The position numbers were made by a program, and so were the translations under genes. A stretch of 20,656 bases of DNA. Origin: a virus. Its lineage: Duplodnaviria > Heunggongvirae > Uroviricota > Caudoviricetes. Positions within the stretch are counted from its first letter, which is position 1. The number at the start of each line of letters is the position of its first letter. This document shows positions 1 through 20,656 of this stretch, piece by piece. The DNA is taken from IMG/VR virus record IMGVR_UViG_2778261572_000002, positions 1-20,656 of that record. One strand, given 5' to 3'. The notes under the pieces were generated by a model, which was not told where the DNA came from, searched no databases, and saw only the letters and a list, made by a program, of their open reading frames with translations.

Positions 1-769
1 GGCCGGTATCGCCTTTAGGACCCTGTTCACCCCGTGGCCCTTGCTCGCCCTGAGGACCTGTGTCGCCTTTAGGACCCTGTTCACCCCGTGGCCCTTGCTC
101 GCCCTGAGGACCTGTGTCGCCTTTAGGACCTGTTTCTCCCTGCGGGCCTTGCGGTCCTGGTGTTTTTGCAATCTCTTTCGCTTCTTCCAGCGCTGTCAGT
201 GCACCGGACTCGTGCAACTCCGCGTTTTTTGCTGCCTGTTCTGCACGATCTGCATCCAGTGAAACCGAAGACACAATTTGTTCCACGTGCTTTTTATCTT
301 CGGCAACGGATTCTGCATTCTGCTGTACGTTATCCGCCAGCGTCTCGCAGTCGCTCTTAATTTGTTGCGCATCAGCGACATGTTGCCCGGCCTGTCGTTC
401 GCTTTTCGCTGCCGCTTCTGCGCTCTGCTGCGCCTGCGCCACCATTTTCTCAAAGCGTTTCACTACATCCGGCTTTAAATCGCCTTCATCAAGGGCAGTC
501 AGAAAATCATTCAGTGTGCCGGGCTTTGAGTCGTCGTAAACCGAAATGTCACCCACGCAGCACTTAGGGCCGTTCTTTTGCTTGATGTGTACGGTGTATT
601 TGCCTTTTTGTGCTTCAAAGGCATACTGTCCCGCCGCATCGGTTTCAATAACCGCAAATGATTCAATGACAACTTCACTGGTATTAACCAGTGCATCTAA
701 ATAAATTTTGCATTCCGCCATCGGAACGCCAGCGCCATTAATCAGCGCACCTGAAATTAATACAGACAT
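1..769 (-). CDS. Side tail fibre protein (lambda Stf-like N-terminal domain plus collagen-like Gly-X-Y repeat region); partial, C-terminus lies beyond window start
   Basis: Minus-strand ATG at 767-769 preceded by GAGG (spacing about 4); the frame stays open to position 1, so it is absent from the ORF track (no stop in window). My translation: [90 protein letters not shown]..., which resembles the lambda Stf N-terminus as I recall it (...[15 protein letters not shown]). The last ~160 nt encode [34 protein letters not shown]... Confidence 0.75.
11..118. repeat. Perfect 54-bp tandem direct repeat, 2 copies (11-64 and 65-118), with a diverged third copy from 119; in-frame coding repeat of six Gly-X-Y triplets
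   Basis: Seen directly: gcctttaggaccctgttcaccccgtggcccttgctcgccctgaggacctgtgtc occurs twice head to tail. 54 bp = 18 codons of the fibre gene. The array probably continues past the window start. Confidence 0.9.
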
Positions 770-816
770 AAAGCCTCTGAACTGAAAACGGCCGCCAGAC
801 AGCGACCGTTATTGTT

Positions 817-1341
817 TTACACGTCAGGTTTTTCCGGCCACTGAATTAAATCAAAGGAAGATTTATCACTGACCTGACTTAAATCCAGCGCCTTTACCGC
901 TTTGATATATGCCATCCACTGCGTAAGACGGGCTTTATCATCGTCGCTGATGGTGCCCAGCTCCAGCTCGATTTTCCAGTCGGAGGTGATGTCCTTCGCT
1001 TCATTCAGCAGGCGCTGGCGTTGTTTTTCTGCCAGTTGCGAATAATCAACAGGAACCGGCAGCACTTCGCCGTCCTGGTAATACCAGCTGGCTTCAATGC
1101 CAAAACCTTCCGGCAGTTCATCCACTTCCACAATAGTGAAGCCAGCCGGATAAAGACGGGACACGTCTTCCGCCATCGAATAAATCACGCCGGTTTCCGG
1201 GTGAATACACAATTTGTATTTCTTCGTGAATTTATCCAGTGATTCATAAAAATCCTGTCCGTCTTCACTACGGAAATACTGAATATTTTCACCATAAGGC
1301 ATCTCTTCCGGGTAATAACGCGTGACGTTTCTGAGTTCCAT
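817..1341 (-). CDS. Tail fibre assembly protein (Tfa / Mu U-like chaperone)
   Basis: Sits immediately downstream of the tail fibre gene. Start moved from the track's 1377 to ATG at 1341 (MELRNVTRYYPEE...), which has a strong SD (TAAGGAGAAAATA-ATG) and lies after the upstream stop. Size and C-terminal region look like phage Tfa chaperones. Confidence 0.8.
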   Translation of the reverse strand: MELRNVTRYYPEEMPYGENIQYFRSEDGQDFYESLDKFTKKYKLCIHPETGVIYSMAEDVSRLYPAGFTIVEVDELPEGFGIEASWYYQDGEVLPVPVDYSQLAEKQRQRLLNEAKDITSDWKIELELGTISDDDKARLTQWMAYIKAVKALDLSQVSDKSSFDLIQWPEKPDV

Positions 1342-1355
1342 TATTTTCTCCTTAA

Positions 1356-2159
1356 TTAACCTGATACAGTGCGCCATGAACCATTGATATAAATCTGAGT
1401 TTGTTTGTAATACACGCCGCCGATGTTATCCGCAGAGTTACTGCCGGTATCCTGAACCTGAATACCGGACAGGGTGCAACCAGACGGCGCGCGAAATGTC
1501 CAGGTCATCCAGTTACCGCCGGGATTGTGAAACACTTCGCTGGTGTATCTGAAATCACGCACAGCACCGGAATCGGTACTGCTGATGGTGATATCGCTGC
1601 TGCCATCAAACAGCACATTGTTAATCCTGCGGGCCGTCTGAAGCCGGGTTGCCGTTCCGGCGTTGCCGCCGATGTTGTTGATAGTGATATCCGAAGTCAG
1701 GGCCATGCCGTTGACCTTACGCGCTTTTGGCACACCGCTGATGTTATCCAGAAACAATTGTTTATTCGGGATGTCTGCACCGTTACGGTCTTTTGCCAGT
1801 CTGGCGTTTGCGTTATCCATCGCAATCTTGACCGCTTTTGGCGTAGCTGCTTCTGTTTCTGATTCACTGTTAACAGCACTGTTAAGCTGCACCACGCCTT
1901 TTTGCGTCAGTGATGCATCCGGGACTTTCTGGCCAATAAACGAGGTCAGCGCCTCAACCAGCTGGTTTTGTTTTTCCGGGTCAGGGGTGACGCCAGCCTC
2001 TTTAAGGACGTTAATCACCTCCTGCTGCAAATCACGCGTTGCCGCCTGATGATTATTCATAAATTCAGCAGTAACGATGGTTCCCTCAATTCCCTGAGTC
2101 GGGTCACCGTCATGAAATAACTTATCCGGCGTATTCACCGGGGGCATTAAATTCCGCAT
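1356..2159 (-). CDS. Tail fibre protein (short Stf / P2 H / Mu S family)
   Basis: 267 aa. Contains the conserved tail-fibre motif KGVVQLNSAVNSESETEAATPKAVKIAMDNANARLA (compare lambda Stf / P2 H ...QLSSATNSTSETLAATPKAVK...) and a later ...GTATRLQTARRINNVLFDGSSDITIS motif. GGAGG SD; ATG shares one nt with the upstream TAA. Confidence 0.85.
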   Translation of the reverse strand: MRNLMPPVNTPDKLFHDGDPTQGIEGTIVTAEFMNNHQAATRDLQQEVINVLKEAGVTPDPEKQNQLVEALTSFIGQKVPDASLTQKGVVQLNSAVNSESETEAATPKAVKIAMDNANARLAKDRNGADIPNKQLFLDNISGVPKARKVNGMALTSDITINNIGGNAGTATRLQTARRINNVLFDGSSDITISSTDSGAVRDFRYTSEVFHNPGGNWMTWTFRAPSGCTLSGIQVQDTGSNSADNIGGVYYKQTQIYINGSWRTVSG

Positions 2160-2731
2160 TATTCCTCCACCTCATACGTGAAATAACAGTCTGTAAAAGC
2201 CGGTTTAAGGTCTTTAAACGTGTTTTCTAAAATGGATTCCCCGAAGGCCGTCAGCGGTTCACCGGTTGCCGATGCACCCGTTCTGAACCGGTAGACCGGT
2301 GTTTTTGTCCCGATAACATTGACCTGCCACGCCCAGCGGATTTCCGGTATCAGCAGACGGTCACCACAGCGGTTTATCCCCACCCGGAACGGTCGCGGCT
2401 CCGTAATGGTGATGGTATAGCCCAGACTGGCGGCAAGGCTTTTGAAGTAAGGGATTGACAGACCACCCGTGGCAGCCATTTTTACCAGTATGTTTTGCCG
2501 CCGCTCCTGTTGTGTTGCCCCTTCACGGGGGACAACACCGTACACGCGCTCCCAGTCGGACAGCGTCATCGATGCCTGCAACGGGGTGATTTGTGCCAGA
2601 ACGCGCGCTGCTGACGCCTTCACGGCTTCCATGACGTCAGCCTCGGCTGTCAGTTCTGCGGAAATATATTTCCCGTTCAGGTCATAACTGACAGGTGGCA
2701 GCATGGCGCGAAATAAATCGACCATATTCAT
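2159..2731 (-). CDS. Mu gp48-like tail/baseplate protein (DUF2313, YmfQ-like)
   Basis: Start moved from the track's TTG at 2767 to ATG at 2731 (MNMVDLFRAMLPPVSYDL...), which follows the baseplate J stop (2736-2738) and has a GAGGGG SD. Position between baseplate J and the tail fibre matches Mu gp48. Confidence 0.75.
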   Translation of the reverse strand: MNMVDLFRAMLPPVSYDLNGKYISAELTAEADVMEAVKASAARVLAQITPLQASMTLSDWERVYGVVPREGATQQERRQNILVKMAATGGLSIPYFKSLAASLGYTITITEPRPFRVGINRCGDRLLIPEIRWAWQVNVIGTKTPVYRFRTGASATGEPLTAFGESILENTFKDLKPAFTDCYFTYEVEE

Positions 2732-2735
2732 AAAA

Positions 2736-3815
2736 TCACCCCTCACGTGGAAAAGGCTGAATATCAATATTTCCCGGGCGCAGCCATTCCCACGTTGACG
2801 CGTTAATAATGGCTTTTACGTTGTCTGCTGGCGTAATGATTCGCCGGTCACTGACACCGGAAATTAATGAAATCTGGGTTTCCAGTTGTGAAATAATTAA
2901 TTCTTGCCCCGGCTCCAGTCGGTTCATAAAATCCGTGATAACGTCAGTTATCTGCGGTTTTATCTGCTCAACGGTCAGGCCGCTGGTTTTTACCCGGACA
3001 ACGAAATCAACGGCTTTTTTCGTCGGGGCCAGCACCATCGTGTCCTTCGCCGTCACCGGGCGAACTTCCTCAATATGTGCCAGCACGGCATTAATCAGTT
3101 CCTGCGAGGGGAGGTCATTGGCTGACGTAATGGCCACATCAACCGTTCCCAGTCCACGACGCAATGGCTCCACATATGCCGAGGTAACGCCATCCACTTC
3201 CAGCGCCCAGCGTTTGTAATCATATTTGTTACCGCCAGCGGGTGGCCTGCGCAGAATATCCAGATAACGCGCCAGCAGGTCGGCGTCACTTTCCCTGTCC
3301 GTTCCGCCAGTCAGGGATTTAATCGTCACCGTGCTGTTGATGCCTTCCGGCGGACTGACCAGCGTTGCCGTCTGCGTTGTGGATACGTTCGTCTGTGCGC
3401 CCGTGGTGGTGCTTTTTACCGTCACCTCCGCGCTGCCTTCATCACCGATGGTGCAGTCTGCGGTGGTGGCCACGCTGACACCTTCACCGCGAATTTCCGC
3501 ACCGGCTGGCAGCATCTTACCGGGGGTACCGGTAATCACCACCGGACCGGATGAGGCTGTTGCTTTTTTACGAAAAACATTGCGCGTGCGGCAGTGCAGC
3601 TCCAGATATTCAGGGTCTGCCGTGTCAGGAAACACCTGACGGAGGATCCACCCCTGATGCATATAAAGCCCGTCCGCCACGCCGGATACGGCATTGGCAC
3701 GAATGCGGTAATCGCTGTCAGCGCCGGTGTCGATGGTTTCTCCCGGCAGGGCGTTAGCGATATCACGTAGCTGGCGTTCTGTGTTTTCAGCAACGCCCGG
3801 AACAGGAAACGGCAT
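2736..3815 (-). CDS. Baseplate J-like protein (Mu gp47 / P2 gpJ family)
   Basis: 359 aa; internal region ...DRESDADLLARYLDILRRPPAGGNKYDYKRWALEVDGV... is typical of the Baseplate_J family. ATG overlaps the upstream stop (TAATG). Confidence 0.85.
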   Translation of the reverse strand: MPFPVPGVAENTERQLRDIANALPGETIDTGADSDYRIRANAVSGVADGLYMHQGWILRQVFPDTADPEYLELHCRTRNVFRKKATASSGPVVITGTPGKMLPAGAEIRGEGVSVATTADCTIGDEGSAEVTVKSTTTGAQTNVSTTQTATLVSPPEGINSTVTIKSLTGGTDRESDADLLARYLDILRRPPAGGNKYDYKRWALEVDGVTSAYVEPLRRGLGTVDVAITSANDLPSQELINAVLAHIEEVRPVTAKDTMVLAPTKKAVDFVVRVKTSGLTVEQIKPQITDVITDFMNRLEPGQELIISQLETQISLISGVSDRRIITPADNVKAIINASTWEWLRPGNIDIQPFPREG

Positions 3816-4165
3816 TACATAATCCTCACAGGGTGTTCAAACGTCTGCGGTGTGCCCGCGTTATCCGTGACGGTGATTAGCAGCAACAACCAGCCGCGCT
3901 GCCCCGTTTTTGTGTCAACGGTAATTGCTGTCGCCCGCCCGTCATCGAGCAGGGGCTGAAGTGCCTGGCTGGCATACTGCGCCGCCAGCCTGTGGACACG
4001 GGAAACGTCTTTTTCCCGCTTCAGTTCGTGCAGGCGTGACCCCAGCGACGCATCCGCCCAGTAACTGCCAAGCGGTGTCGCCAGTCGCAGATAAACCGCG
4101 TTATGGAGTGTATAAATCCGGCGGTGTTCGTAGTCGCCGGTTGCAGGTGAAATCGTCTGGTCCAT
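3815..4165 (-). CDS. Mu gp46-like baseplate protein
   Basis: 116 aa ORF between the spike and baseplate J, the synteny position of Mu gp46. Only ATG 4165 is available in frame after the upstream stop. Assignment is by position and size only. Confidence 0.6.
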   Translation of the reverse strand: MDQTISPATGDYEHRRIYTLHNAVYLRLATPLGSYWADASLGSRLHELKREKDVSRVHRLAAQYASQALQPLLDDGRATAITVDTKTGQRGWLLLLITVTDNAGTPQTFEHPVRIM

Positions 4166-4218
4166 GCCGCCAGTCTGGCAGCATGGACAGGTCAGAATCA
4201 GGTGAGGGTGTTCAGCAC

Positions 4219-4875
4219 TTAATTAACCGGCGTGTCAGACATGCCGTGTGGGGTCGGGTGTTTGTGCGTTCCGATTTTAACGCCATTAATGGTGACGTCA
4301 ACGGAGGTAATCACACCGCTTGTGTGGTTGATATTGCCTTCAAAGGTGGCAGTATATTTTCCTTTGCCGCCTTTAATGGCCATACCCCCATTACCGGATA
4401 TTTTCCCTTCAGCAATTAATTGCTCACTTGCGGTAAGTTGGGGAGTAATAAAACCGGCGCTGTCCTTTGCTTCAACTTCAAACGAATTACATTTCACCCG
4501 GTAAATATCACACTCCGTTTCAATCACACGTCCGCGCTTCAGCACAATTTTCGCGCCTTCATCGGTATACAGGGCCACCTCGCCGGGTTTCAGTTCCGTC
4601 AGGCGATATGCGCCGTGCTCGGTGGCCACGACGACGGTATGGGAGGTATTACCGTTCAGCGGAACGGCAATACCCATCGAGCCGGGCGGCGGGGATGTGG
4701 TGAGGCCGTAATGCTGAAAATACTCCGCACCGTCCAGCTGTTCGCCTGCCAGCCCGTTCAGCTGGAGAAGCTGTACTTTGGTCGAACTGTCCACCGTACC
4801 GGTCACCACCCTGAATGCCTGGCGAACGGCGACCAGTGCCTGCTGTATGCGCTGATTAACCTTGTCCCACATCAT
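4219..4875 (-). CDS. Baseplate central spike / puncturing device (Mu gp45, P2 gpV-like)
   Basis: 218 aa. C-terminus ...GVKIGTHKHPTPHGMSDTPVN carries a His-rich apex motif like those of Mu gp45 / gpV-type spikes. ATGA overlap with the upstream gene. Confidence 0.8.
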   Translation of the reverse strand: MMWDKVNQRIQQALVAVRQAFRVVTGTVDSSTKVQLLQLNGLAGEQLDGAEYFQHYGLTTSPPPGSMGIAVPLNGNTSHTVVVATEHGAYRLTELKPGEVALYTDEGAKIVLKRGRVIETECDIYRVKCNSFEVEAKDSAGFITPQLTASEQLIAEGKISGNGGMAIKGGKGKYTATFEGNINHTSGVITSVDVTINGVKIGTHKHPTPHGMSDTPVN

Positions 4876-6083
4876 TTCTCCCAGACCTTAACAATGGCGA
4901 CCTCTTTTTTCTTTTTGCCCCTGCGGTGATGGCGTTTCTTCTCGCGCGGGAAGGCATCAGGTATCCACACGCCGTCCTCCTTAAAGCGAAGACGGGTTGT
5001 CTGTCCGTTCCGGCCTACGCTGAACTCACGCCCCATCAGGAAAAAGATGGCGTCGATGCCGTGGGGTTCGCTGACAATCCGCACACGCTGGCCGGGCTGC
5101 CACAGGACACCGTCCGCCGTGCGATGGCCTGCAACCAGTGCGACGATATCCAGCCCCGACAGGCGGGCATCACTCATCATTTTTTTTGCGCGCCAGTTCA
5201 CCTGCTCCATGTTACTGGTGTCGCCCTGGGTGATTATCTGCGGGCGGTAATAATCCACGGTGGGGTCGGTGGCCACGGCTTTCATGTTATGAATGCCTGT
5301 CTGACCACTGCCTGTATTACCGCTGTCCTGCCCGGATAATGTGCGCACGCTGCCGTCCTCGTTCCAGATATCCAGCGGCACCACGGCTACCTGTTTCTTG
5401 CTGTCTGCGCGGCGGGCGTGGCTCTGGGCCAGCACCGTTAGCTCGGAGAAACAGCCGTTAATGGACCGGGTATCGTCCAGCTCCATCACGTTGTTCCCGG
5501 TGCCGTCCAGCTTCATAATCAGCGTGTCCACCGGCGTGGTGGTGTAGTCAGGGCCACCCACAACCAGCGTCCCGTCAGGCTCAAACCACGGCCATAAGCC
5601 GCGACCGGCGGCAGCTTTAGCCAGTGCATCCCACGCACGCATCCCCGGCTCTATAACGACCTTGTCATTACGTGACACACCGGACGCCTGAATACGGATG
5701 CGCTGTATCCCCAGCGGTCTGACAATCCTGTCGATGACCTCGTCCAGTGTCAGCTGGTTGGCACTGAATACCGGCGCGGCACAGTCTACCAGAATGGCGG
5801 CATCATCACGCCCGGACAGGGTCAGCGTGCAGCTCTGACGGGATACACTGCGGCGCACGCTGTCCACGCGACCACTGAGGACCGTCTCGTCTCCCACCTG
5901 CAAACGGACCGGCGCACCCCGGACGATATCCGCCGGGAACACCTTTTCAGGCAGTCCCAGCTGAAGCTGCCACCCGTCGGCGGCTTTCAGGAAATCGCTG
6001 TCAATACGATAACTGCTCCAGTCAGAATGCGACCTTCCGGCAATGACCAGGCTGATTTTGTCGTCGTTATTTTGCGTAGGCAT
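4872..6083 (-). CDS. Mu P-like baseplate hub / tail protein (gp44 family)
   Basis: 403 aa; sits between the N-like protein and the spike, as in Mu (N-P-gp45). Overlaps the upstream gene by 17 nt. Confidence 0.75.
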   Translation of the reverse strand: MPTQNNDDKISLVIAGRSHSDWSSYRIDSDFLKAADGWQLQLGLPEKVFPADIVRGAPVRLQVGDETVLSGRVDSVRRSVSRQSCTLTLSGRDDAAILVDCAAPVFSANQLTLDEVIDRIVRPLGIQRIRIQASGVSRNDKVVIEPGMRAWDALAKAAAGRGLWPWFEPDGTLVVGGPDYTTTPVDTLIMKLDGTGNNVMELDDTRSINGCFSELTVLAQSHARRADSKKQVAVVPLDIWNEDGSVRTLSGQDSGNTGSGQTGIHNMKAVATDPTVDYYRPQIITQGDTSNMEQVNWRAKKMMSDARLSGLDIVALVAGHRTADGVLWQPGQRVRIVSEPHGIDAIFFLMGREFSVGRNGQTTRLRFKEDGVWIPDAFPREKKRHHRRGKKKKEVAIVKVWEK

Positions 6084-7416
6084 TAATCACCATCCCGGCG
6101 GTTATGTTGTTCGGGTCACGCAGCTGCGGGTTCAGACGTTGCAGCTCTGCCGCACGGCTGTAATCACCGTACCACTGCCACGCCAGCAACAGCAGACAGC
6201 TGTCCGCCTGCACCTGTTTCTGCGTCAGCGGTGGGCGGCGTGACAGAACCAGCAGGCCGACATCCTGCACGGATGCCGCCACGTTTTTCATGCTCTGAAT
6301 GATTTCCGGGTACATCAGCCCCAGTGGTGATGCGGTTTCGGTTATCCGTTCGCGTTCGCCTTCATAGCGTTCACGGAACAGCGTAATGGCTGCCTGTAAG
6401 CGGGTGCGCACATCCCCGACCAGTCGCCCGATATCCGCCGGGATAAGCTGTTCTGACTGGGCCTCATCGGACAGTATCGCTGTTGCCACGCTGGCCAGCT
6501 CTGAGGCCGCCAGAACCGCATAAGCCGCTTTCACGTCCTGCACGTCTTCCACGGACGCATCCGGCGGAAGTGCCACAGACGGCGTTTTATCACCGCTGAC
6601 CAGTGCGACCGGCAGCGCGACCAGCTCATCCATATCTGCCATCACCTCATTCCAGCAGGTCATCACGGTCGCAGAACTGGCGACGCTGTCTTCTGCGGTC
6701 AGCCCGGTCGTGGTGGCGGAATCAGTACGTTCCAGCACCGGCACCGCGTGCCCGACATCTGACGTGTGGATTTCCAGCACCTCTGCCAGCCCGCCGATGA
6801 ACTTTCCGGGTTCGCTGGCCAGTGACATCATATTGTCGATGGATGAGAGAAAATCGCTTTTGAACGTCAGCAGGGTATTCACCAGCGTGGCACGCACCGT
6901 CTGGATTTTTTTTATCACGCTGTTAATGGTCTTTAAAGGGGCCGTAACAGCGTCAAATAATTCGCTTAACTGCGCCAGTAACTTATCCAGTTCTTCAAAT
7001 AACTGCTGTGCAAACAGCTCCGGTAACGGGGTGCTGAACAACGCGCTGCCGGTGCGGTTCTCCAGAAAACTCATGTCAATGGTGCAGCTGTCCGGGCTTT
7101 CTGCGTCATGGCGGATGCTGTAGCCGGTCACAATCACCGACGGCACAGAGCCATAAACCGGATGAATCAGTTCACCATCGCCGCCTTTATCCAGGGCGGC
7201 GATCAGCTTTTCAAGTTTATATTCGTAAAACTCCCCCCACAGGAACGCCGTCATGCGGAACGGTCGCGCCTTGCGTCCGAGGTCGTGCAAATCCGCCCCG
7301 TCAACAAACGGGTATTCATAGACCGCATGGTCGCGGCTGATTTGTTCATCCGTGTTCAGTACATCAAACTGCACGCCACGAAAGGAGGCGTTTTGCAGGT
7401 TTTCAGCCCAGCCCAT
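6067..7416 (-). CDS. Mu N-like DNA circularisation / tail protein (gp43 family)
   Basis: 449 aa ORF immediately downstream of the tape measure with an ATGA overlap; position and size match Mu N. Confidence 0.75.
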   Translation of the reverse strand: MGWAENLQNASFRGVQFDVLNTDEQISRDHAVYEYPFVDGADLHDLGRKARPFRMTAFLWGEFYEYKLEKLIAALDKGGDGELIHPVYGSVPSVIVTGYSIRHDAESPDSCTIDMSFLENRTGSALFSTPLPELFAQQLFEELDKLLAQLSELFDAVTAPLKTINSVIKKIQTVRATLVNTLLTFKSDFLSSIDNMMSLASEPGKFIGGLAEVLEIHTSDVGHAVPVLERTDSATTTGLTAEDSVASSATVMTCWNEVMADMDELVALPVALVSGDKTPSVALPPDASVEDVQDVKAAYAVLAASELASVATAILSDEAQSEQLIPADIGRLVGDVRTRLQAAITLFRERYEGERERITETASPLGLMYPEIIQSMKNVAASVQDVGLLVLSRRPPLTQKQVQADSCLLLLAWQWYGDYSRAAELQRLNPQLRDPNNITAGMVINAYAK

Positions 7417-12233: not shown

Positions 12234-12795
12234 GCTGTTGCTCTCTTAATTCATCCAGACCACAGATATCTGCGCCGTATTGCGTACCAATTCGCAGTAA
12301 ATCCGGATCCGGGTCTGACAGCCTGCCGTGGTAGCGGTTGAAGAGGCGGTCCGCTTCTGCGCCACGCTCCGGCCATTTGCCGTTCTCCAGCGCGTGCTCC
12401 ACCCAGCGGGTATCGAACTCACAGGCAAACACGGACATTGCCCGCTCTGCCACGCCGGTGTTAAACAGCGTCCTGACCCGCCCGGGTTCGAAATAATCAA
12501 TCTCCAGCCCCAAATCCTGACCGGTCAGCAGGCGACGGACGGATTCAACCAGCTGGTTTGTCCCGACCTCATCCCGGACGGTGCCTCCCTGTCTGGCGCT
12601 CTGTTCGCTGCGGGTGTTGTAATCACCCACCACAACCACAAAGCGTCCGGTGGCAATGTATTTCCGGCGTGACGTGGAATAGCGTTCGGTTTTCACGATG
12701 CCGCCGAACGTCACCCAGGCTGCCGGAAGGCTGCGAACAATCCGGCCCGGGTCTTCATCCAGTTCACCGGCATAGGTGCGGACATCCTGCACCAT
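12214..12795 (-). CDS. Mu gp37-like protein (DUF1834-type head-tail joining/completion)
   Basis: 193 aa from ATG 12795. The frame stays open upstream and a strong GGAGGTG lies about 60 nt upstream with only non-canonical in-frame codons (ATT/CTG) near it, so the true start is uncertain. Confidence 0.65.
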   Translation of the reverse strand: MVQDVRTYAGELDEDPGRIVRSLPAAWVTFGGIVKTERYSTSRRKYIATGRFVVVVGDYNTRSEQSARQGGTVRDEVGTNQLVESVRRLLTGQDLGLEIDYFEPGRVRTLFNTGVAERAMSVFACEFDTRWVEHALENGKWPERGAEADRLFNRYHGRLSDPDPDLLRIGTQYGADICGLDELREQQHEQNEG

Positions 12796-12848
12796 ATGCC
12801 CCAGACCACAGCGCAGACGCTCAACCAGCGCCCGTTCAATTTCAGTAA

Positions 12849-13280
12849 TCAGAATGCACCTCCCCGCGTGGACTCACGCCCGAACTGACGAGAGCCGGAG
12901 CGGATACGCACCTGTGACGATGACTGGATCACACTGCCGGACGTATCCCGCCCGAGGTTGATTTGTCCTGCCGCGACTTTCTCCAGAAAGCGGATGGCAT
13001 CCCGGTAGCGCATCTGAATTTCTTCTGAGCAGATACGGTAATCGGTCGCCAGGTGATAACGGGCGATATCGCAGCAGTAACCCACCAGAATCCCCGGGCT
13101 GTCAGGCCACGGGGTCCGGTAACGCCCCACCAGATAGCCATCAATCTGGGCACTGGCGCGCGCAAGCGCGGAGGCCAGCTTTTCTTCGTCGATGAATCCT
13201 GTCATGTCTTCATCCGTCAGTGTGCGTGCCTCGCGTTCACTGAACGCCCTGATGAACTGTTCCGGTGTGGCGTAAGACAT
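12849..13280 (-). CDS. Mu gp36-like protein (DUF1320-type, head-tail connector/completion)
   Basis: 143 aa; AAGGAG SD 9 nt upstream of ATG 13280; position after the capsid and gp35-like gene. Confidence 0.7.
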   Translation of the reverse strand: MSYATPEQFIRAFSEREARTLTDEDMTGFIDEEKLASALARASAQIDGYLVGRYRTPWPDSPGILVGYCCDIARYHLATDYRICSEEIQMRYRDAIRFLEKVAAGQINLGRDTSGSVIQSSSQVRIRSGSRQFGRESTRGGAF

Positions 13281-13628: not shown

Positions 13629-14537
13629 TTACTCCGTCGTACCATCTGAACCAAATGCCATCTGCCAGAAGCCATAACCGCCGTTACAGCGCGCTTCGGC
13701 ACCAAACCGAAACTTCTTACGCATGAATACGTTGTCGCTGTTGTAGTCCGTCTGCTCCACAAAAACCGGTTTCTTACGCTGCTGGAAGATCAGCGGCTTG
13801 ACCGAGCGGGAGGTGTCGAACAGGAACCATGCAGAATCCGACGTCAGCTCCGGCATCACCAGCACTTCAGCGGTGTTGCGGTACGGGTTCGGCGTACCGT
13901 CCGGGAACTTCTCGGCGGTCATCAGGTAGTTCGCGTCATCTTCCAGCGCCGGTGGCACAACCAGCAGATTCGGACGGATTCTGAGAGATGCGCCTTCGTC
14001 ATCTTTCAGGCTGCGCATGGCCGTACGGGCGGCACCGTAGGAGGCTTTCGCTTCAGCAAGCGACCCCACTTTGAGTTTTTTGGTGCCTTTGTTGGACACC
14101 GATTTACCGGCGACCAGGTGGTCGGTATCAAAGAACATCTGGCCGTCGTAACAGGGACTGGTAAAACCGTTATTGATAAGGGACGCCACAATATCTGCCG
14201 GGAGTTCTGCCGCTGACTGGCCCGCGTCTCTGGCCTGAAGGGCATAACCCATAATCTGGTCGTCCTCGATGTCATTGCGATCGACTTCAACCGTGGCTTC
14301 CCAGTCCTTGTTGCGGATGGTGTAGTTGAAGGCTTCCAGAGATTTAACGTTTTTATCACCGACCCACTCGCGCATTTTCGGGAAACGAGTTAACCAGCTG
14401 TAGTCGTTCTCCTTGCTGCCTGATGGCACTTCCATTGCCACTTTTTGCCAGTCAGTGGGGGTCTGGTCGTAGGCTTTCTGATAGGTGGTTTTAAGATTAA
14501 TAAAAATCTGGTTGACGTTTTTAGCGTTGACTAACAC
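13629..14537 (-). CDS. Major capsid protein (Mu T-like)
   Basis: Start moved from the track's ATG 14579 to GTG at 14535-14537 (MLVNAKNVNQIFINLKTTYQ...), which has a TAAGGAG SD 6 nt upstream and begins after the upstream gene's stop (14548-14550). About 302 aa. Confidence 0.8.
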   Translation of the reverse strand: MLVNAKNVNQIFINLKTTYQKAYDQTPTDWQKVAMEVPSGSKENDYSWLTRFPKMREWVGDKNVKSLEAFNYTIRNKDWEATVEVDRNDIEDDQIMGYALQARDAGQSAAELPADIVASLINNGFTSPCYDGQMFFDTDHLVAGKSVSNKGTKKLKVGSLAEAKASYGAARTAMRSLKDDEGASLRIRPNLLVVPPALEDDANYLMTAEKFPDGTPNPYRNTAEVLVMPELTSDSAWFLFDTSRSVKPLIFQQRKKPVFVEQTDYNSDNVFMRKKFRFGAEARCNGGYGFWQMAFGSDGTTE

Positions 14538-14547: not shown

Positions 14548-14943
14548 TTAACTGAAATAAACCCAGACGCCATCGCCACAGATGCCGATCACTTTACCGG
14601 CGACAGGACGGGCGCTGCTGTTGTCGGTTTTTGCCACGGTCACGCTGTCTTCCACGTAACACAGCTTACCGACCTGCGATTGTGTGACCGGGTCTGAGGT
14701 GCTGTTCGCCATCAGAAAGGATTTGCCGCAACGCACCAGAACGGTGACATCACCATCGCTGCCGGTGCTGTTATCCGCCCAGCCATCAGACACGCCCAGC
14801 GTAATCTGTGAGGCCGTGGCACTGGCCGGAACGGCATAACCGGATGCGTTAACGGCCACCATATGACCGCCAAAAATTTCGGTTGCAGCGGCAACCGGCA
14901 CCGGGTTCAGCTCGCCGTCACGGTAGGGGGTATTGCGATCCAT
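14548..14943 (-). CDS. Hypothetical head protein between protease and capsid (possible decoration/cement protein)
   Basis: 131 aa; ATG 14943 abuts the protease stop (TAA-ATG) with an AGGAG SD. Ser/Thr/Gly/Val-rich, beta-like composition, not scaffold-like. Function not assignable from sequence alone. Confidence 0.55.
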   Translation of the reverse strand: MDRNTPYRDGELNPVPVAAATEIFGGHMVAVNASGYAVPASATASQITLGVSDGWADNSTGSDGDVTVLVRCGKSFLMANSTSDPVTQSQVGKLCYVEDSVTVAKTDNSSARPVAGKVIGICGDGVWVYFS

Positions 14944-16113
14944 TTACTTATCTCCTGCGTAACGGGCGACATCCTCTGGATCGACGCCCATCATTGAACA
15001 AATGGCGATATCGACATCGACGTCATCGCCGGTTTTAATCTGCGCCGGGGCAGGCGACGGCGTTTTGGGTGGTTTGCCGCCGGTCTGGGTGCTGCTGAGT
15101 GCGGCAAGCGGGGCGGTTTTATCCAGCCAGGTTTTAAAACCGTTGATATCGCGGCTGGCGTAATCTTTCGCCCAGTCTTCCAGCGTCGGAAGCAGTCGTC
15201 CGTCAGACAGCGCCGCCTGAATCAGTGCCCCGGCTTCGGCCTCACCGGACTGTTGCGCCAGTACGGCATAACGTCCCTGAAGTTCTTCATATGCCGTCAG
15301 AGGGATATGCTTCGTCGGGTCATAGGCATTTGCTGACAGGCTGGCGATTTGCTCGTCTTTCTGATTCAGCAGGGCCAGCAGGCCAACAGAAGCCGCTGCC
15401 GTTCCTTTGCCACCGGAAATAGCATCAATAATTTTTTGCAGTTCATTTTTAATGTCTTCCGGCGTTGAGGTTGCCGGGAGGTTCAGCGTCCAGCGCAGAC
15501 TGGACAGCAAATCGCTTAACAGTTCTTCATCCACTGTTGTGGTCTCCGTTTCAGTTGACAGACTCGCCAGACGGCTGGCCGCAGCCAGCATGACCGCGTC
15601 CATACCGTCGAGCGCCGGGGTATTGGTCAGCGCAGCATGTAACAGCTCCAGCACTTCGCCGCGCTTGTTGTAGGCAAAAACAGGGGAAATAAATTTGTAC
15701 TCACCGGCGGCAATCATGGCCGCCGCGTTCTCCGTCCACTCCACACCAGTGGCATACAGGCCCGCACCTTCTCGCCATTCCACCTGGCTGAACCAGCCCG
15801 CCGCCGGGGCGGGCTTGCCGTTGTTTACGGCGCGCAGCGTCTGATGTTCGTAATCAATGACAAATGGCGTGGTACGGGCTGCCACCTGCGCGACAAGCTG
15901 CGCGGCCAGTTCGGCAGTCAGCACCCATTTACCGCTTTCGACTTCATCGGTATGTGGGCGACCATCCACCGCACTGAACTCGCCCGCCGGAAACAGCTGG
16001 ATTTCGCTGTGGGTTGCTTTAGTAATTTCGAGGCTTAATGCCGCAATGTTCATCTTCATACGCGGCATGATGACGAAAGGGGAACACGGGGTACTGTTGA
16101 GGGTGTTCAGCAC
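14944..16113 (-). CDS. Head maturation protease / scaffold (Mu I-like)
   Basis: Large ORF preceding the capsid gene. The track start is GTG 16113; alternative ATGs at 16068, 16059 and 16053 (MPRMKMNIAAL...). None has a clear SD, so the N-terminus is uncertain by up to 20 codons. Confidence 0.75.
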   Translation of the reverse strand: MLNTLNSTPCSPFVIMPRMKMNIAALSLEITKATHSEIQLFPAGEFSAVDGRPHTDEVESGKWVLTAELAAQLVAQVAARTTPFVIDYEHQTLRAVNNGKPAPAAGWFSQVEWREGAGLYATGVEWTENAAAMIAAGEYKFISPVFAYNKRGEVLELLHAALTNTPALDGMDAVMLAAASRLASLSTETETTTVDEELLSDLLSSLRWTLNLPATSTPEDIKNELQKIIDAISGGKGTAAASVGLLALLNQKDEQIASLSANAYDPTKHIPLTAYEELQGRYAVLAQQSGEAEAGALIQAALSDGRLLPTLEDWAKDYASRDINGFKTWLDKTAPLAALSSTQTGGKPPKTPSPAPAQIKTGDDVDVDIAICSMMGVDPEDVARYAGDK

Positions 16114-16151: not shown

Positions 16152-16176
16152 CGTTTTTAAAACCCTTTTAAAAACG
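16152..16176. promoter_or_regulatory. Perfect 11-bp inverted repeat with 3-bp spacer (CGTTTTTAAAA-CCC-TTTTAAAAACG) in the G-I intergenic region; candidate late-activator operator or promoter element
   Basis: Seen directly at 16152-16162 / 16166-16176. It is in the only sizeable non-coding gap of the head operon, 40-100 nt upstream of the I-like start candidates, and is followed on the coding strand by an AT-rich stretch with TTTTAT elements. Confidence 0.35.
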
Positions 16177-17983: not shown

Positions 17984-19565
17984 TCAGTCGCCCCCAGATA
18001 TCCGCCACAAAGAATGCCTGCGTCAGCAACTGCCGCAGCGTGTCATCCGGCAGCTCCGGCCATGCTTCCGCCAGTACGTTCATGGCCTCGTCTGCATCCC
18101 GGCCTTCCTGTATGGCCTGCACCAGTGGGGCCACCAGCTCGTTCATTCCCTGCGCGATGGCTTCTGCCGGAAGTTCTGCCCGGTCGATGGCGCGTTGTGC
18201 CGGGTCGTCCTCTCCGTTGTCCTGCTGACTGAGTGCAGCAACATTCAGTCGCTCACGCAGCTGGCTGAGGCCCGCCTGCACAGGCAGACGCTGTGCCACC
18301 GGCACCAGTACCTCTTCGCCGTCTTTCGGGGTGGGGATACCGGTTTTTTTGCGTACCCACGACGCCGGGATATCCTTCATACCCACACTGTTGAGCAACA
18401 CGCTGACGGCGTCCGCCACGCCCTTAATGTCGGCTTCCTGCTGCACATCAAACACCAGTCGCGGCAGACGGCGGGGCGGGATATCCTGCCAGCCGTTGAG
18501 GCTGGCCATCATCTGTATCAGGCTGCTGAACATGCCGGACAGCTGGCGTGCATCGGCGGCCAGAATGTCGTGCCGGACCTCGTTATGCACATTACCCAGC
18601 GCGTTGGTGGAGGTTTTACCGTCAGCCTGGCTGGTCAGCGTACTGCCCAGAATCACTTTTGAGGTGGTGCGCTCTGCCCATTCCACCATCGACATGAACG
18701 CCTCCGGTCCGCCGGACGCGGCCTCCTTGAACTCAATTTCGTTACCCTGCGGCAGGGCTGCCACCGCTTCATGACCCAGATTGACCAGCGCCTCAAGAAT
18801 GTTGTCCCGGTCCTCGTCACTGGTGCCCTGTGCATAGTAGGCAATACGCGCCGGAAGGCCGTAAATCTCCAGAAATTCTGCCATATCACGCAGCGCAAAG
18901 TTTTTGAACAGATATGGCCAGACCAGTACGCGGAACAGGCCGGATGAACCCAGGAACCCCGACCGGGCGTTGTAACGGTGAACCAGCCAGCCGAACGGCC
19001 ACAGCGCGGAACCGTCCTTACCATCCTCCCCACGATTGCCGTCATCCAGACGGAGTTCGTCATTGTGTTCCGGCAGGGTAATAAACCAGTTATGCGGGCG
19101 CAGCGTCACCGCATCCGGTAACCACGTTTTATCCACGAACGCCCAACTGATTTCCTGACAGCTGAAGCCATAACCGACACTGCTCATCCCGTTGAGGATG
19201 ATGTCCTCCATGTCCGGGATGCCGTGCAGCCATTCATCCACGGCGGCAGCCAGCTCCTTTTCTGCCTTCGAGGCATTGCGGGGCGGCTCCACCGACCAGT
19301 CCAGCGTCAGCAACGCTTTTTTGCGCTTTTCCATCTCGGCGAACAGATGGCCATCACGTTCTTCCATATCCGCAAACAGCATCGCCTGCGCCGGAAGATA
19401 GCCGCGCTCGGCGGCTTCCAGAATGCGCGGCAGTTTTCTGATGTTCAGACCACGGGACGGGTGGTCGGGATAAATGCGCAGCCGTTCCGCCACTCTGACC
19501 GACTGCGTGGTTTTGAGTGCCTCACGTTTCAGCGGGCGTCCGTAAATATCAACAAGCTGTGCCAT
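17970..19565 (-). CDS. Portal protein (Mu gp29-like)
   Basis: Start moved from 19571 to the second ATG at 19563-19565 (MAQLVDIYGRPLK...): GGAGG directly abuts the first ATG (spacing 0) but is 6 nt from the second, which overlaps the terminase TAA by 1 nt. About 531 aa, immediately after the terminase. Confidence 0.85.
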   Translation of the reverse strand: MAQLVDIYGRPLKREALKTTQSVRVAERLRIYPDHPSRGLNIRKLPRILEAAERGYLPAQAMLFADMEERDGHLFAEMEKRKKALLTLDWSVEPPRNASKAEKELAAAVDEWLHGIPDMEDIILNGMSSVGYGFSCQEISWAFVDKTWLPDAVTLRPHNWFITLPEHNDELRLDDGNRGEDGKDGSALWPFGWLVHRYNARSGFLGSSGLFRVLVWPYLFKNFALRDMAEFLEIYGLPARIAYYAQGTSDEDRDNILEALVNLGHEAVAALPQGNEIEFKEAASGGPEAFMSMVEWAERTTSKVILGSTLTSQADGKTSTNALGNVHNEVRHDILAADARQLSGMFSSLIQMMASLNGWQDIPPRRLPRLVFDVQQEADIKGVADAVSVLLNSVGMKDIPASWVRKKTGIPTPKDGEEVLVPVAQRLPVQAGLSQLRERLNVAALSQQDNGEDDPAQRAIDRAELPAEAIAQGMNELVAPLVQAIQEGRDADEAMNVLAEAWPELPDDTLRQLLTQAFFVADIWGRLNADS

Positions 19566-20656
19566 TACCATCCTCCTGAACCAAAACGCCCGCCACGGTC
19601 ACGCCCGGTGCTGCGTGGGGTGTGAATCTGAAATTTTGCGCTGCGCGATACCGCCAGCGTCCACAGCATGTGCAGACAGTCCGGGCCATCATCGTGGTCG
19701 GCTTTGGGGTAGTGGCGCAGCTGGTCAATCAGTGTCTGATGTGTGTGGCTGATACGAATCAGGCCGTTGGCCATATGCGGCTGAAGGGATTCAATACGCA
19801 GCGCCTTATCCTCCAGCGGGATGACCGGCAGCGCCGGAACCGGTACGCCCAGCGCCGCCGAACGCTCAACCAGCACGGTACGCAGAAACTCCTGAAACTG
19901 GACGGACTCAAACGACCAGCACAGGCAGTGATATTCCCGCTGATACTTAATCACGTCTTCGATAAGTTTATTCGGCAGACGTCGGCGGATATCGGCTTCA
20001 ACCACATCCAGAATGCCGGTAAAGCGGTTAAAGCCCCCCACGAGAATGGCCGACGGGTCGCGGTTTTTGTTTTTCTTCCCGAGACTGGGGTCAACAGCAC
20101 CATAAAACACCCATTCATCAAGACGGTTAACCCAGAACTTAATGCAGCCCGCAAACAGCGCATCTTCACCGCTGACCGGGTCGTTCTGGTATTCAGAATC
20201 AAAGGTGTCATGACCGTCACGGACACGGATTTTCATCAGCGCCAGCAGGGGACGCGCCGCCCATGACACCACTGACCCGGCGAGCATGTCGGCTTCGTTC
20301 TGCCGGTAAAGTGCCTCCGCCGCTTCCGGCTGTTTGTTGCGGATGAGTTCTTCCCACTCGTCCCACAGCTTCATATTGGCAGGCCACTGAATAACGGCCT
20401 TAAAGCGGGCCGTTTTCCACATCGGGTTATTGAGTGTGCGCGACAGTACGGAGTCGTAATGCAGGATGGTTCCGATATAAATAATATCGGTTTTACCGCC
20501 AGCCTCACCCAGCGGCATCACGGTTTTGGTGAGCCAGTCGTGCAGCTTGTCGCGCTGCTCCGGGTTACGCACCATCTCGTCGTTCTCGATGTCGTCGAGG
20601 ATGACCAGGTCAGGACGGTACGGACCGTGGCGCAGACCACGCAGTTTTTTACCACT
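19565..20656 (-). CDS. Terminase large subunit, C-terminal ~360 codons (N-terminus beyond window end)
   Basis: The reading frame is open from the window end (...LVILDDIENDEMVRNPEQ...) to the TAA at 19565-19567. Contains acidic motifs (...DHDDGPD...) consistent with the terminase nuclease domain. Directly upstream of the portal. Confidence 0.8.
   Translation of the reverse strand, partial: SGKKLRGLRHGPYRPDLVILDDIENDEMVRNPEQRDKLHDWLTKTVMPLGEAGGKTDIIYIGTILHYDSVLSRTLNNPMWKTARFKAVIQWPANMKLWDEWEELIRNKQPEAAEALYRQNEADMLAGSVVSWAARPLLALMKIRVRDGHDTFDSEYQNDPVSGEDALFAGCIKFWVNRLDEWVFYGAVDPSLGKKNKNRDPSAILVGGFNRFTGILDVVEADIRRRLPNKLIEDVIKYQREYHCLCWSFESVQFQEFLRTVLVERSAALGVPVPALPVIPLEDKALRIESLQPHMANGLIRISHTHQTLIDQLRHYPKADHDDGPDCLHMLWTLAVSRSAKFQIHTPRSTGRDRGGRFGSGGW

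Follow-up and report, generated by a model that had tools for sequence, protein, structure and literature searches.

The late region of a Mu-like prophage from an Escherichia-type host, with candidate leaderless late operons

A run of Mu-type head, tail and fibre genes that fills a draft contig from end to end raises two questions: whether it is the undamaged late region of a phage, and how such a region would be transcribed. The window analysed here is the complete 20,656-nt draft contig NLMV01000074.1 of assembly GCA_002229415.1. Very probably it is the late region of a Mu-like prophage (a transposable myovirus from an Escherichia-type host), encoding head, tail and fibres, with its structural genes intact. 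An intact late block is in itself ordinary; the unusual part is the apparently leaderless messages of two internal late operons.

Gene content and integrity

The minus strand carries 25 consecutive reading frames, which make 98.2% of the window coding, belong to Mu-type Pfam and PHROG families throughout and are collinear with phage Mu (Table 1). The series begins with terL, portal, F, G, I protease, a 131-aa head protein, T capsid, gp35-like, gp36, gp37 and DUF2635, continues with sheath, tube, chaperone, a 52-aa ORF in the −1 frame, tape measure, N, P, gp45, gp46, gp47 and gp48, and closes with a fibre, a fibre assembly protein and a second, lambda-Stf-like fibre. The initial annotation had described an intact Mu-type late region of about 25 minus-strand genes in conserved order, free of frameshifts, internal stops and IS insertions, and families, order and integrity all bear this out. 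In alignments to close relatives, we found no truncated genes, premature stops or unprogrammed frameshifts in the 25 frames; the sole likely shift is a programmed −1 event in the chaperone. All products align over their full length with those relatives, with small indels confined to the tape measure, gp37 and gp45. Within the 20.6-kb window there were no matches to plus-strand gene families, IS elements, tRNAs or Rfam families.

Shine-Dalgarno matches of at least 4 nt precede 19 of 23 starts, in agreement with the earlier statement that such sequences stand at nearly every junction. The same annotation called the block fully coupled, which describes most of the 24 junctions (13 overlapping and 8 separated by 0-14 nt) but fails at three wider gaps, of 200 nt (G to I), 53 nt (gp45 to gp46) and 47 nt (ahead of the second fibre). 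Against two relatives, the window genes gave dN/dS values of 0.124 and 0.097; the late genes have therefore diverged under purifying selection.

Table 1. Features of the window, all on the minus strand
Feature	Coordinates	Evidence
Large terminase, C-terminal 363 of ~546 aa; 5' 183 codons past contig end	19565..20656	frame open to window end; PHROG 38, 1.8e-93
Portal (Mu gp29/H type), 531 aa	17970..19565	PF06074 Portal_Mu, 1.2e-95
Mu F-like head morphogenesis protein, 388 aa	16817..17983	PF04233; 41% to Mu F
Mu G-like virion morphogenesis protein, 183 aa	16269..16820	PF05069; PHROG 26
A/T-tract palindrome CGTTTTTAAAA-GGG-TTTTAAAAACG, G-I gap	16152..16176	conserved in relatives
13-nt box GTGCTGAACACCC, G-I gap; candidate Mor/C-family late activator site (promoter of I operon)	16101..16113	repeat, fixed position
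-10-like hexamer CATCAT, -13..-8 from ATG 16059	16067..16072	nAnnnT offset
I protease/scaffold	14944..16059	PF10123, 1.1e-98; no SD
131-aa head protein, decoration-like	14548..14943	PHROG 1731 virion structural protein, 1.3e-55
Major capsid (Mu T type), 302 aa, GTG start	13629..14537	PF10124, 7.4e-96; 69% to Klebsiella phage head protein
gp35/HI1506-like connector, 113 aa	13284..13625	PF17891 FluMu_N
gp36 (Mu J) connector	12849..13280	PF07030, 4.5e-33
gp37 (Mu K, tail terminator), 212 aa from candidate CTG start 12852	12214..12852	PF08873
DUF2635 (Mu gp38-like) small tail protein	11991..12233	PF10948
Contractile tail sheath, 473 aa	10577..11998	PF04984 + PF17482; 29% to Mu L, full length
Tail tube	10190..10564	PHROG 185, 3.4e-35
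Tail assembly chaperone, 127 aa (9810-10193), with probable -1 product of 185 aa	9637..10193	PHROG 508
Tape measure, 743 aa	7416..9647	PF10145
N, DNA circularisation/baseplate hub	6067..7416	PF07157
P (gp44) baseplate hub, 403 aa, intact	4872..6083	four GpP/gp44 domains
gp45 spike	4219..4875	PF06890
Second GTGCTGAACACCC box; candidate promoter of gp46-to-fibre operon	4206..4218	repeat, fixed position
-10-like hexamer CAGACT, at apex of gp46 hairpin	4172..4177	nAnnnT offset
Palindrome/RNA hairpin GTCCATGCTGCCAG-A-CTGGCGGCATGGAC, buries gp46 start codon	4160..4188	dG -23.8 kcal/mol, z -4.7
gp46 baseplate wedge, no SD	3815..4165	PF07409
gp47 baseplate J	2736..3815	PF04865, 6.9e-69
gp48 baseplate wedge	2159..2731	PF10076
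Short tail fibre, 267 aa	1356..2159	PF03406; N-terminus 40% to Mu S residues ~12-198
Tail fibre assembly protein (Mu U type), 174 aa	817..1341	PF02413; identical protein in many assemblies
Second fibre, first 256 codons	1..769	PF08400, 2.9e-50; PF01391

Since the window is an entire contig, the genes at both its ends are incomplete. One end lies 183 codons into terL and the other inside a 54-nt collagen-like tandem repeat of the second fibre, and the repressor, transposase, Mor, lysis and small terminase genes, the remainder of terL and both prophage ends fall outside. The second fibre combines a lambda-Stf-type N-terminal domain with collagen-like Gly-X-Y repeats (54-nt tandem repeat at 9-134); in relatives it reaches 492-852 aa, and a DUF4376 gene and then the prophage end come next.

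The I frame probably starts at its second ATG, 16059 (MKMNIAAL), rather than at 16068, and the ATGAAA at which I begins in relatives aligns with 16059. A nested scaffold start within I is possible at GTG 15534, which has a GGAG and occupies the position of Mu Z. The 131-aa head protein is 63% identical to the 'capsid stabilizing protein' of Klebsiella phage ST405-OXA48phi1.1 and has no counterpart in Mu or Sp18. The gp35-like gene holds a 42-nt tandem repeat (13322-13431, TRF).

Relationship to named phages

Mu (Muvirus mu, AF083977) shares the late order from portal to fibre assembly protein and the Pfam families of the portal, F, G, I, T, gp36, gp37, sheath, N, P, gp45-48, the N-terminus of S, and U. 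Amino acid identity is only 24-41%, however, with no nucleotide similarity, and Mu TerL gave no match to the window TerL by tblastn; judged by sequence, the lineage is distinct from Mu proper. Mu's G-segment, gin, com and mom are lacking here, and two fibre genes instead stand in tandem on one strand. Relatives of the window carry one Mor-family gene, whereas Mu has both Mor and C.

The nearest phage record is Klebsiella phage ST405-OXA48phi1.1 (MK388859), itself prophage-derived (PMC7371120). It matches nearly all late genes at 35-69% amino acid identity, and its gene order is identical down to the 131-aa head protein and the small −1 ORF; it differs in host genus and in a fibre end with an SGNH hydrolase. 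Haemophilus phage SuMu and the Pseudomonas D3112/DMS3-type phages are the next-best matches (terL ~65%, portal ~46%), and the packaging and portal module alone is held in common. D3112/DMS3-type phages are siphoviruses with unrelated tails. Across the Klebsiella phage, SuMu and the DMS3/D3112 type, TerL identity is 65-71%. Prophage Sp18 of E. coli O157:H7 Sakai, a transposable Mu-like myovirus with the same late order (PMC7430833, PMC10132054), is only 23-41% identical to the window at the amino acid level and stands nearer to Mu; it carries an invertase and a mom-like gene.

Distribution and decay among E. coli relatives

Much closer relatives are found within E. coli, for which we found no paper describing this Mu-like lineage. 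Of 5426 complete E. coli genomes, 55 (~1%) cover at least 80% of the late region, and MuA-MuB occur in 58, the listed strains largely overlapping the late-region carriers. Nucleotide identity of the close relatives is about 95-98% across most of the window. The prophages of E2348/69, STEC313, TUM9812 and RM9088 contain the same genes at 89-100% nucleotide identity over most of the window but have different tape measure and fibre cassettes, and relatives' 546-aa TerL is 99.7-100% identical over the shared part. Complete relatives encode MuA, MuB, GemA and a single Mor-family activator together with a CI-type repressor and a Ner-like protein; two holins and an endolysin are also present, and a DUF1804 small terminase gene lies upstream of terL. 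Their chromosomal site differs strain by strain (beside sbcC, beside yjfK, within eutC, beside katE).

These relatives bear on whether the block might be a domesticated, host-kept particle locus of the gene transfer agent or tailocin type. Strong purifying selection on the structural genes would suit such a locus, but the terminase, portal and full set of head genes are present, in every complete relative the block is part of a Mu-type transposable element that has regulation and lysis of its own, and the insertion site varies in the ~1% of genomes that carry it. We give this reading the least credence of all. An assembly chimera of two related prophages is also highly improbable. Identity is indeed mosaic: positions 1-6000 are ~100% identical to TUM9812, an identical portal protein is present in three other assemblies, and the tape measure is a mosaic hot spot, with 65-97% nucleotide identity to relatives versus 96-100% in its flanks. 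Closed genomes, however, show the same mosaicism among themselves, and reading frames and gene overlaps are intact at all junctions.

A more serious alternative, though still an unlikely one, is that the late region is intact while the element is defective, its early, lysis or packaging functions being lost or broken in this genome; at the contig end, an IS or a deletion might interrupt terL, or the assembly might have been broken by a second, partial copy. The contig does break off 183 codons into terL, an essential gene, and no repeat can be seen in its last bases at that end; any of these events (second copy, deletion, IS) could equally account for the break. Close relatives have decayed in just such ways: TUM9812 has a frameshifted P gene and a full copy side by side with an internally deleted second one, and in RM9088 the tape measure gene holds IS66 and a fibre gene is frameshifted. 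Several lesions are usual in decayed relatives, though, whereas the visible 20.6 kb shows none of their IS insertions, frameshifts or deletions; the elements of STEC313 and E. coli O127:H6 E2348/69 (inserted in eutC) are complete; and the genome counts for the late region and for MuA-MuB are similar. On the annotation's further reading, a functional or recently acquired prophage rather than a decayed remnant, the relatives point in both directions. Mitomycin C induction would be a weak test of function, because the relatives' repressor has an HTH of the CI type, and no S24 self-cleavage domain was detected in it.

Proposed organization of late transcription

Two of the gaps that interrupt coupling suggest internal late promoters. 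A 13-nt box occurs twice in the window, in the G-I gap and ahead of gp46, and relatives have a third copy upstream of the holin. Each complete relative has exactly three boxes, on the coding strand and in its three largest gaps, and in all relatives they lie at −51 from the I start and −50 from the gp46 start. The word itself is particular to the genome: 13 of 16 genomes have their own 11-20-nt word common to the I and gp46 upstream regions, and the Klebsiella phage has a different 14-mer, ACCCACTGAAGCCC, in the same three-box layout, with the same geometry of box, −10 and AUG. Mu late boxes are of related flavour (CATAACCCC), and Mu has late promoters at Plys and in the G-I gap that depend on a Mor/C-family activator; the third box lies before gp46 in the window lineage but inside N before P in Mu.

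Between box and start codon, a nAnnnT hexamer falls at −12 to −7 or −13 to −8 in all 31 of the I and gp46 sites from 16 genomes, against a background of 8-10%. Box, hexamer and start stand in this geometry at only two sites in the window, I and gp46, which are also its only two unambiguous starts without a ribosome-binding site. In Mu, by contrast, I is preceded by a leader and its RBS is annotated. A relative's Mor-family protein exceeds the Pfam cut-off score, and Mor/C activators bind a dyad immediately upstream of a poor −35 (bioRxiv 10.1101/2025.05.02.651988).

We propose that the window holds parts of three transcription units (lysis to G, I to gp45 and gp46 to fibres), each headed by the genome-specific box, where a Mor-family activator would bind just upstream of a poor −35; we infer this step from position and by analogy with the C-dependent Plys and PI promoters of Mu. 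Within each unit, genes would be translationally coupled or closely spaced. Because the hexamer lies 6-7 nt ahead of the start codon and no Shine-Dalgarno sequence is present, the I and gp46 transcripts would begin at or beside the AUG, and we lean slightly towards leaderless messages made by activator-dependent late operons. Leaderless translation is inefficient in E. coli, which speaks against this model, and if the geometry were exactly that of Mu Pmom, transcription would start a few nucleotides upstream of the AUG, which also counts against it.

At gp46, a hairpin buries the start codon. It is kept in 15 of 16 genomes, with 88% of cells paired versus 23-41% in slid controls, and 6 of its 13 pairs show compensatory changes. 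In read-through RNA the gp46 AUG would be locked in this hairpin, so that only transcripts from its own promoter would yield gp46 protein. The hexamer and hairpin signals are not independent at gp46, since −11A/−7T is the closing pair of the hairpin; at I sites, the hairpin is weak or absent, yet the hexamer persists.

The boxes and palindrome could instead be RNA-level signals (processing or stability sites, or a translational switch that a phage factor would open, as Com does at Mu mom) within one long late transcript. The compensatory changes and sense-strand G-U pairs of the gp46 hairpin fit this explanation, as does the ability of GGGTG-CTGAA-CACCC to fold as a small hairpin, and a consensus sigma-70 scan scored no good promoter at the I and gp46 candidate sites. 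Yet the box word varies among genomes while being identical at two or three sites within one, a pattern that fits a co-evolving DNA-binding activator. The nAnnnT hexamer keeps a fixed distance from box and AUG even without a hairpin, the sites match the positions of the late promoters Plys and PI mapped in Mu, and no com-like gene was seen in relatives. RNA-level signalling therefore seems doubtful, and we retain activator-dependent promoters as the working model.

The G-I gap also contains the A/T-tract palindrome, which in Enterobacterales relatives takes the form CG-TTTTTAAAA-N3-5-TTTAAAAA-CG. The gap sits at 50-54% of prophage length in relatives. The G-I gap of Mu is likewise non-coding and holds its strong gyrase site, a terminator and the late promoter PI, with similar A/T tracts beside the annotated gyrase cut site. 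This analogy makes the palindrome a candidate equivalent of the strong gyrase site region at the centre of Mu.

Probable recoding and candidate start codons

The tail chaperone probably has a longer, 185-aa form made by −1 frameshifting; frameshifted chaperones are found in Mu too, where the shift is −2. The candidate shift site is G GTA AAG (AAG codon 9879-9881), and the 52-aa ORF (9637-9795) would form the tail of the −1 product. The −1 frame is open, and its encoded peptide conserved, upstream of the ATG of this ORF. The window's site deviates from the canonical X XXY YYZ heptamer, a point against frameshifting; in the Klebsiella phage, a canonical A AAA AAG occupies the aligned position.

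A start of gp37 at CTG 12852, behind a strong Shine-Dalgarno sequence, appears rather likely. CTG is a very poor initiator, which counts against this assignment. It overlaps the gp36 stop, however, and has GGAGGTG 5 nt upstream, the first ATG coming only at 12795, and the PF08873 alignment begins at residue 2 of the long form. All E. coli relatives have CTG at this codon too; the Klebsiella phage has TTG there, and Mu has ATG.

Gene content and order

On the minus strand of the window, which has 56% G+C, 25 reading frames follow one another; together they cover 98.2% of its bases and agree with the roughly 25 consecutive genes from terminase to tail fibres described in the initial annotation. 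Two of them, the genes at either end, were omitted by the ORF listing because both run off the source sequence. The conserved order claimed at that stage, that of Mu, is borne out by collinear tblastn matches on Mu and Mu-type families for every product, and the label "Mu-type" is fair in a broad sense, with Pfam and PHROGs families Mu-type throughout. The head genes scored above Pfam cut-offs for the portal (PF06074), F (PF04233), G (PF05069), the I protease (PF10123) and the T capsid (PF10124), and a contractile tail and baseplate set follows in Mu order, comprising sheath, tube, tape measure, N, P and gp45 to gp48. None of the nine longest plus-strand ORFs gave a family above threshold, and no tRNA gene or Rfam family was detected in the window. 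The plus-strand ORFs at 41-539 were rejected as genes, being the antisense of the collagen-like fibre gene.

Features of the window, ordered from the terminase towards low coordinates
Feature	Position	Strand	Remark
Large terminase (terL)	19565-20656	minus	frame open to the window end
Portal, F, G		minus	in this order
G-I gap	16060-16268		
A/T-tract element	16152-16176		in G-I gap
Box, first copy	16101-16113	coding	200-nt gap before I
I protease/scaffold		minus	gene-caller start 16068; indicated start 16059
In-frame GTG within I	15534		with a GGAG
131-aa head protein		minus	
T capsid	13629-14537	minus	
gp35-like connector		minus	
Tandem repeat in gp35-like gene	13322-13431		
gp36, gp37		minus	gp37 start codon at 12850-12852
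DUF2635, sheath, tube		minus	in this order
Tail chaperone		minus	
Probable -1 frameshift product	9637-10193		
Shift region	9879-9885		AAG codon at 9879-9881
52-aa ORF		minus	-1 frame
Tape measure		minus	region ~7500-9750
N, P, gp45		minus	in this order
Box, second copy	4206-4218	coding	53-nt gap before gp46
gp46 hairpin	4160-4188		
gp46, gp47, gp48		minus	in this order
267-aa fibre, then its assembly protein		minus	
Second fibre, first 256 codons	runs off position 1	minus	lambda-Stf-type N-terminal domain and collagen-like repeats
54-nt tandem repeat	1-134		in second fibre

Two features of the structural genes stood out. The gp35-like connector gene contains a 42-nt tandem repeat of 2.6 copies that encodes a repeated coiled-coil motif, ELTAQLEEERQKVS. 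Relative to the capsid of the window, the T protein of Mu (L012, the Mu comparison locus, 19138-20055) carries two C-terminal segments in swapped order, with window residues 174-214 matching Mu T 245-285 and window residues 237-299 matching Mu T 169-231. The capsids of Sp18, the Mu-like prophage of E. coli O157:H7 Sakai, and of Klebsiella phage ST405-OXA48phi1.1 share the segment order of the window, unlike Mu T.

A lineage distinct from Mu

Despite the shared gene order, the element falls outside the genus Muvirus (Mu, D108, SfMu). By megablast, the window had no match to Mu-type phages, and no phage record covered more than a fragment of it. Its products share only 23-41% amino acid identity with those of Mu and Sp18 (24-41% for Mu alone), and the terL of neither phage matched that of the window. 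The nearest phage record is the Klebsiella phage, at 35-69% amino acid identity with the same gene order, followed, for terL and portal only, by SuMu and the D3112/DMS3 group. The tail fibres also differ in arrangement. Whereas Mu has an invertible G segment with gin, this lineage has two fibre sets in tandem, the first a short Mu-S-like fibre with a U-like assembly protein, the second an Stf-like collagenous fibre with a DUF4376 protein. No long inverted repeats were found in the window, including its low end, which was searched for a Mu-like invertible fibre segment, and neither an invertase nor mom was found in the relatives.

At least 80% of the window is present in 55 of 5426 complete E. 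coli genomes, at ~94-96% identity among the matches listed, the best being strain TUM9812 at 97.8% over 92% of the window. A MuA-MuB pair of the same type occurs in 58 of the 5426, largely the same strains. In TUM9812, STEC313 and E2348/69 (O127:H6), the region makes up the right half of a ~36-37-kb prophage, whose left half encodes a CI-type HTH repressor, a Ner-like protein, a Mu transposase, a MuB-type ATPase and GemA, then one Mor-family activator, two holins, an endolysin and a DUF1804 protein, and finally terL. The right end ...CGCGAAGTTACA is conserved in the relatives, and the prophage ends lie outside the window. Insertion sites differ in every strain (adjoining sbcC, adjoining yjfK, inside eutC and adjoining katE), as expected for transposable phages, and the target duplication in eutC measures 4 or 5 bp according to the position assigned to the end. 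No S24 peptidase domain was detected in the relatives' CI-type repressor (48098-48745 of the TUM9812 locus L001), so induction through the SOS response, as by mitomycin C, is not to be assumed.

An initial count of 33 places in TUM9812 raised the prospect of a burst of mini-Mu copies. We rejected this reading, since a 3-kb baseplate-fibre probe found at most 4 places per genome; the surplus places are probably fibre or collagen repeats common to other prophages.

We found no isolated representative in the phage collection searched, and no usable description of the E2348/69-type element in the literature searched. The element belongs to a lineage that has already been sequenced and automatically annotated: RefSeq annotations exist for dozens of E. 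coli genomes, among them that of the EPEC type strain E2348/69. As first stated, the finding of an intact Mu-like structural module is routine; what the module marks is a lineage of Enterobacteriaceae transposable phages distinct from Mu and Sp18.

Integrity of the structural block

The absence of frameshifts, internal stops and IS insertions was confirmed, with the qualification that it applies to unprogrammed frameshifts: alignment with counterparts in close relatives extends over the full length of every product. Product identity is 60-100% to TUM9812 and 84-99% to STEC313, small indels are confined to the tape measure, gp37 and gp45, and dN/dS across 18-20 genes is 0.097 against TUM9812 and 0.124 against STEC313. 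Lesions do occur in the relatives. P, whole in the window, is split by a frameshift in TUM9812 (L001 19126-20351), and in RM9088 IS66 interrupts the tape measure gene and the second fibre is frameshifted, both lesions being absent from the window. Other E. coli assemblies hold internally deleted copies that retain both prophage ends (L007, L009, L010 and L011), and TUM9812 holds a full and a deleted copy together.

Divergence is concentrated in the tape measure region, at 65-97% nucleotide identity to the relatives between flanks of 96-100%. On these alignments the tape measure gene is a mosaic, or recombination hot spot. The chaperone shares this character to a smaller extent (87% amino acid identity, dN/dS 0.36-0.44).

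The description of the region as fully coupled needs correcting. Of the 24 junctions, 13 overlap and 8 are spaced by 0-14 nt, and 19 of 23 starts have a Shine-Dalgarno (SD) match of at least 4 nt, in line with the coupling and SD sequences reported at nearly every junction; the remaining three junctions are gaps of 200, 53 and 47 nt. Rather than forming one coupled string, the genes are divided by these gaps, two of which contain a repeated box.

An exact portal protein match (locus L005) identified the window as the entire contig NLMV01000074.1 of GCA_002229415.1, 20656 bases long; exact-protein matches were found for shorter starts and none for longest-ORF starts. The low end lies inside a 54-nt tandem repeat (2.4 copies, 98% matches) encoding Gly-X-Y repeats, a typical short-read break, and tail fibre genes of Rac-type and phiP27 phages align with this stretch at 85-93%. 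The high end falls 183 codons into terL with no visible cause, and a break in this essential gene would be compatible with an IS, a deletion or a second copy there. The intactness of a block bounded by contig ends carries no information on the rest of the prophage. The reading as a functional or recently acquired prophage is neither supported nor refuted by the window, since the deciding features lie past the contig ends.

Probable programmed frameshift and start codons

The 52-aa ORF that follows the chaperone lies in the -1 frame. Ahead of the ATG of this ORF the frame contains no stop for 32 codons, and the peptide it encodes (…LILGRYGIT…) is conserved from the E. coli elements to the Klebsiella one. 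This is the layout of lambda G/GT, with overlapping frames between the tube and tape measure genes and a conserved shifted-frame peptide. From sequence conservation, the chaperone gene probably makes a -1 frameshift product of 185 aa. The aligned shift point of the Klebsiella phage is a canonical A AAA AAG, whereas that of the window, G GTA AAG, departs from X XXY YYZ; we infer that it could shift by single-tRNA slippage on A AAG. The Mu chaperone is annotated with a verified -2 shift, unlike the -1 shift predicted here.

Revised starts are indicated for two genes. The Pfam domain of gp37 begins 19 codons upstream of the first ATG, and the homologous start is a CTG overlapping the stop codon of gp36, with GGAGGTG, a 7-nt SD, 5 nt upstream of it. 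The same position carries CTG in every E. coli relative examined, with TTG in the Klebsiella phage and ATG in Mu. For I, alignment with the relatives indicates that translation would begin at the second ATG (MKMNIAAL), not at the gene-caller start. Within I, an in-frame GTG with a GGAG occupies the position of the Mu nested scaffold gene Z.

Candidate late promoters at I and gp46

A 13-nt word, GTGCTGAACACCC, occurs twice in the window, in the gaps that precede I and the baseplate wedge gene gp46. A third copy of this box lies upstream of the first holin in each complete relative, with no further copy there, and in the Klebsiella phage the three corresponding positions are occupied by another word, ACCCACTGAAGCCC. 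From GTDB genomes we fetched 21 loci via sheath alignment; both gaps were present in 16 of the genomes. In 13 of these, I and gp46 are preceded by a common word, specific to the genome, 11-20 nt long and built around a CTGAAC.CC..TCA core.

The layout is constant at all 31 I and gp46 sites of these 16 genomes. The core lies at -51 or -50 from the start codon, a -10-like nAnnnT hexamer occupies -13..-8 or -12..-7, and a GC-rich, GGCGGC-like stretch runs up to the ATG; in the window, the two arrangements fall within 16054-16113 and 4160-4218. Elsewhere, the hexamer was found at 2 of 21 other window starts, 4 of 47 Klebsiella phage starts and 8.4% of all positions. Only the I and gp46 sites combine box and hexamer within the window, and they are its only two unambiguous starts without any SD match. 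Both therefore have the sequence hallmarks of a leaderless mRNA, a -10-like element that stops 6-7 nt short of the start codon together with the lack of an SD. An alternative -10 for gp46 (CATGCT, -20..-15) was rejected as not conserved in relatives, and a plus-strand box-like match at 7029-7043, which has no downstream geometry, was taken as chance. A consensus sigma-70 scan of the window yielded fewer matches than shuffles and none in the gaps.

The shared box upstream of a poor -35 also has the layout of a Mor/C-type late promoter, which makes the boxes candidate activator sites. The binding site of Mor and of C is a dyad immediately upstream of a poor -35 (bioRxiv 10.1101/2025.05.02.651988). 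In Mu, late promoters activated by the Mor-family protein C occupy equivalent positions, one ahead of the lysis genes and one in the G-I interval, and the Mu boxes (CATAACCCC) are of a related flavour. The gene for such an activator lies outside the window; a Mor-family protein was found in a relative. The late genes would then form three units, lysis-to-G, I-to-gp45 and gp46-to-fibres, each driven by a Mor-family activator, and the transcripts of I and gp46 would be leaderless, beginning at the AUG or next to it.

A conserved hairpin at the gp46 start codon

At gp46, a fold of GTCCATGCTGCCAG-A-CTGGCGGCATGGAC at -23.8 kcal/mol (z -4.7) pairs the AUG, and the apex of this hairpin falls on the -10-like hexamer. 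An equivalent hairpin of 10-13 bp is present in 15 of 16 genomes. Paired cells make up 88% of the hairpin alignment, versus 23-41% with the partners slid, and compensatory changes occur in 6 of 13 pairs, a covariation score reached by none of 500 shuffles. Several of the mismatches read as G-U on the sense strand; in four genomes, folding of the sense strand is favoured over that of the antisense strand by 3-9 kcal/mol.

On read-through RNA from the I operon, the gp46 start would be both SD-less and buried; RNA beginning at the gp46 AUG would be without the left hairpin arm, in line with the leaderless model and, equally, with the rival reading of the hairpin as a translational switch. The closing pair is A:U in 16 of 16 genomes and consists of the same bases as -11A and -7T of the hexamer, so the hairpin and hexamer signals are entangled at gp46. 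The I sites retain the hexamer with a weak hairpin or none.

Taken with the promoter layout, we tentatively propose, at slightly under an even chance, that leaderless, activator-dependent late operons with a start-codon hairpin are a property of a widespread clade of Mu-like phages extending from Escherichia and Klebsiella to Burkholderia. If leaderless initiation is correct, promoter choice, and not a ribosome-binding site, would control whether the baseplate and fibre operon is translated, and the balance between a leaderless I start and the internal SD-led scaffold start would set the protease-to-scaffold ratio. The combined leaderless and hairpin signal offers a cheaply testable hypothesis on the timing and dosing of structural proteins in this group.

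An A/T-tract element in the G-I gap

The G-I gap, which lies at 50-54% of prophage length in the relatives, also contains the sequence CGTTTTTAAAA-GGG-TTTTAAAAACG. The A/T-tract palindrome CG-TTTTTAAAA-N3-TTTTAAAAA-CG is conserved across Enterobacterales relatives and resembles the tracts adjacent to the central strong gyrase site of Mu, the role of which has been described (PMC3820752). By this resemblance, we infer that the element is a candidate counterpart of the Mu strong gyrase site.
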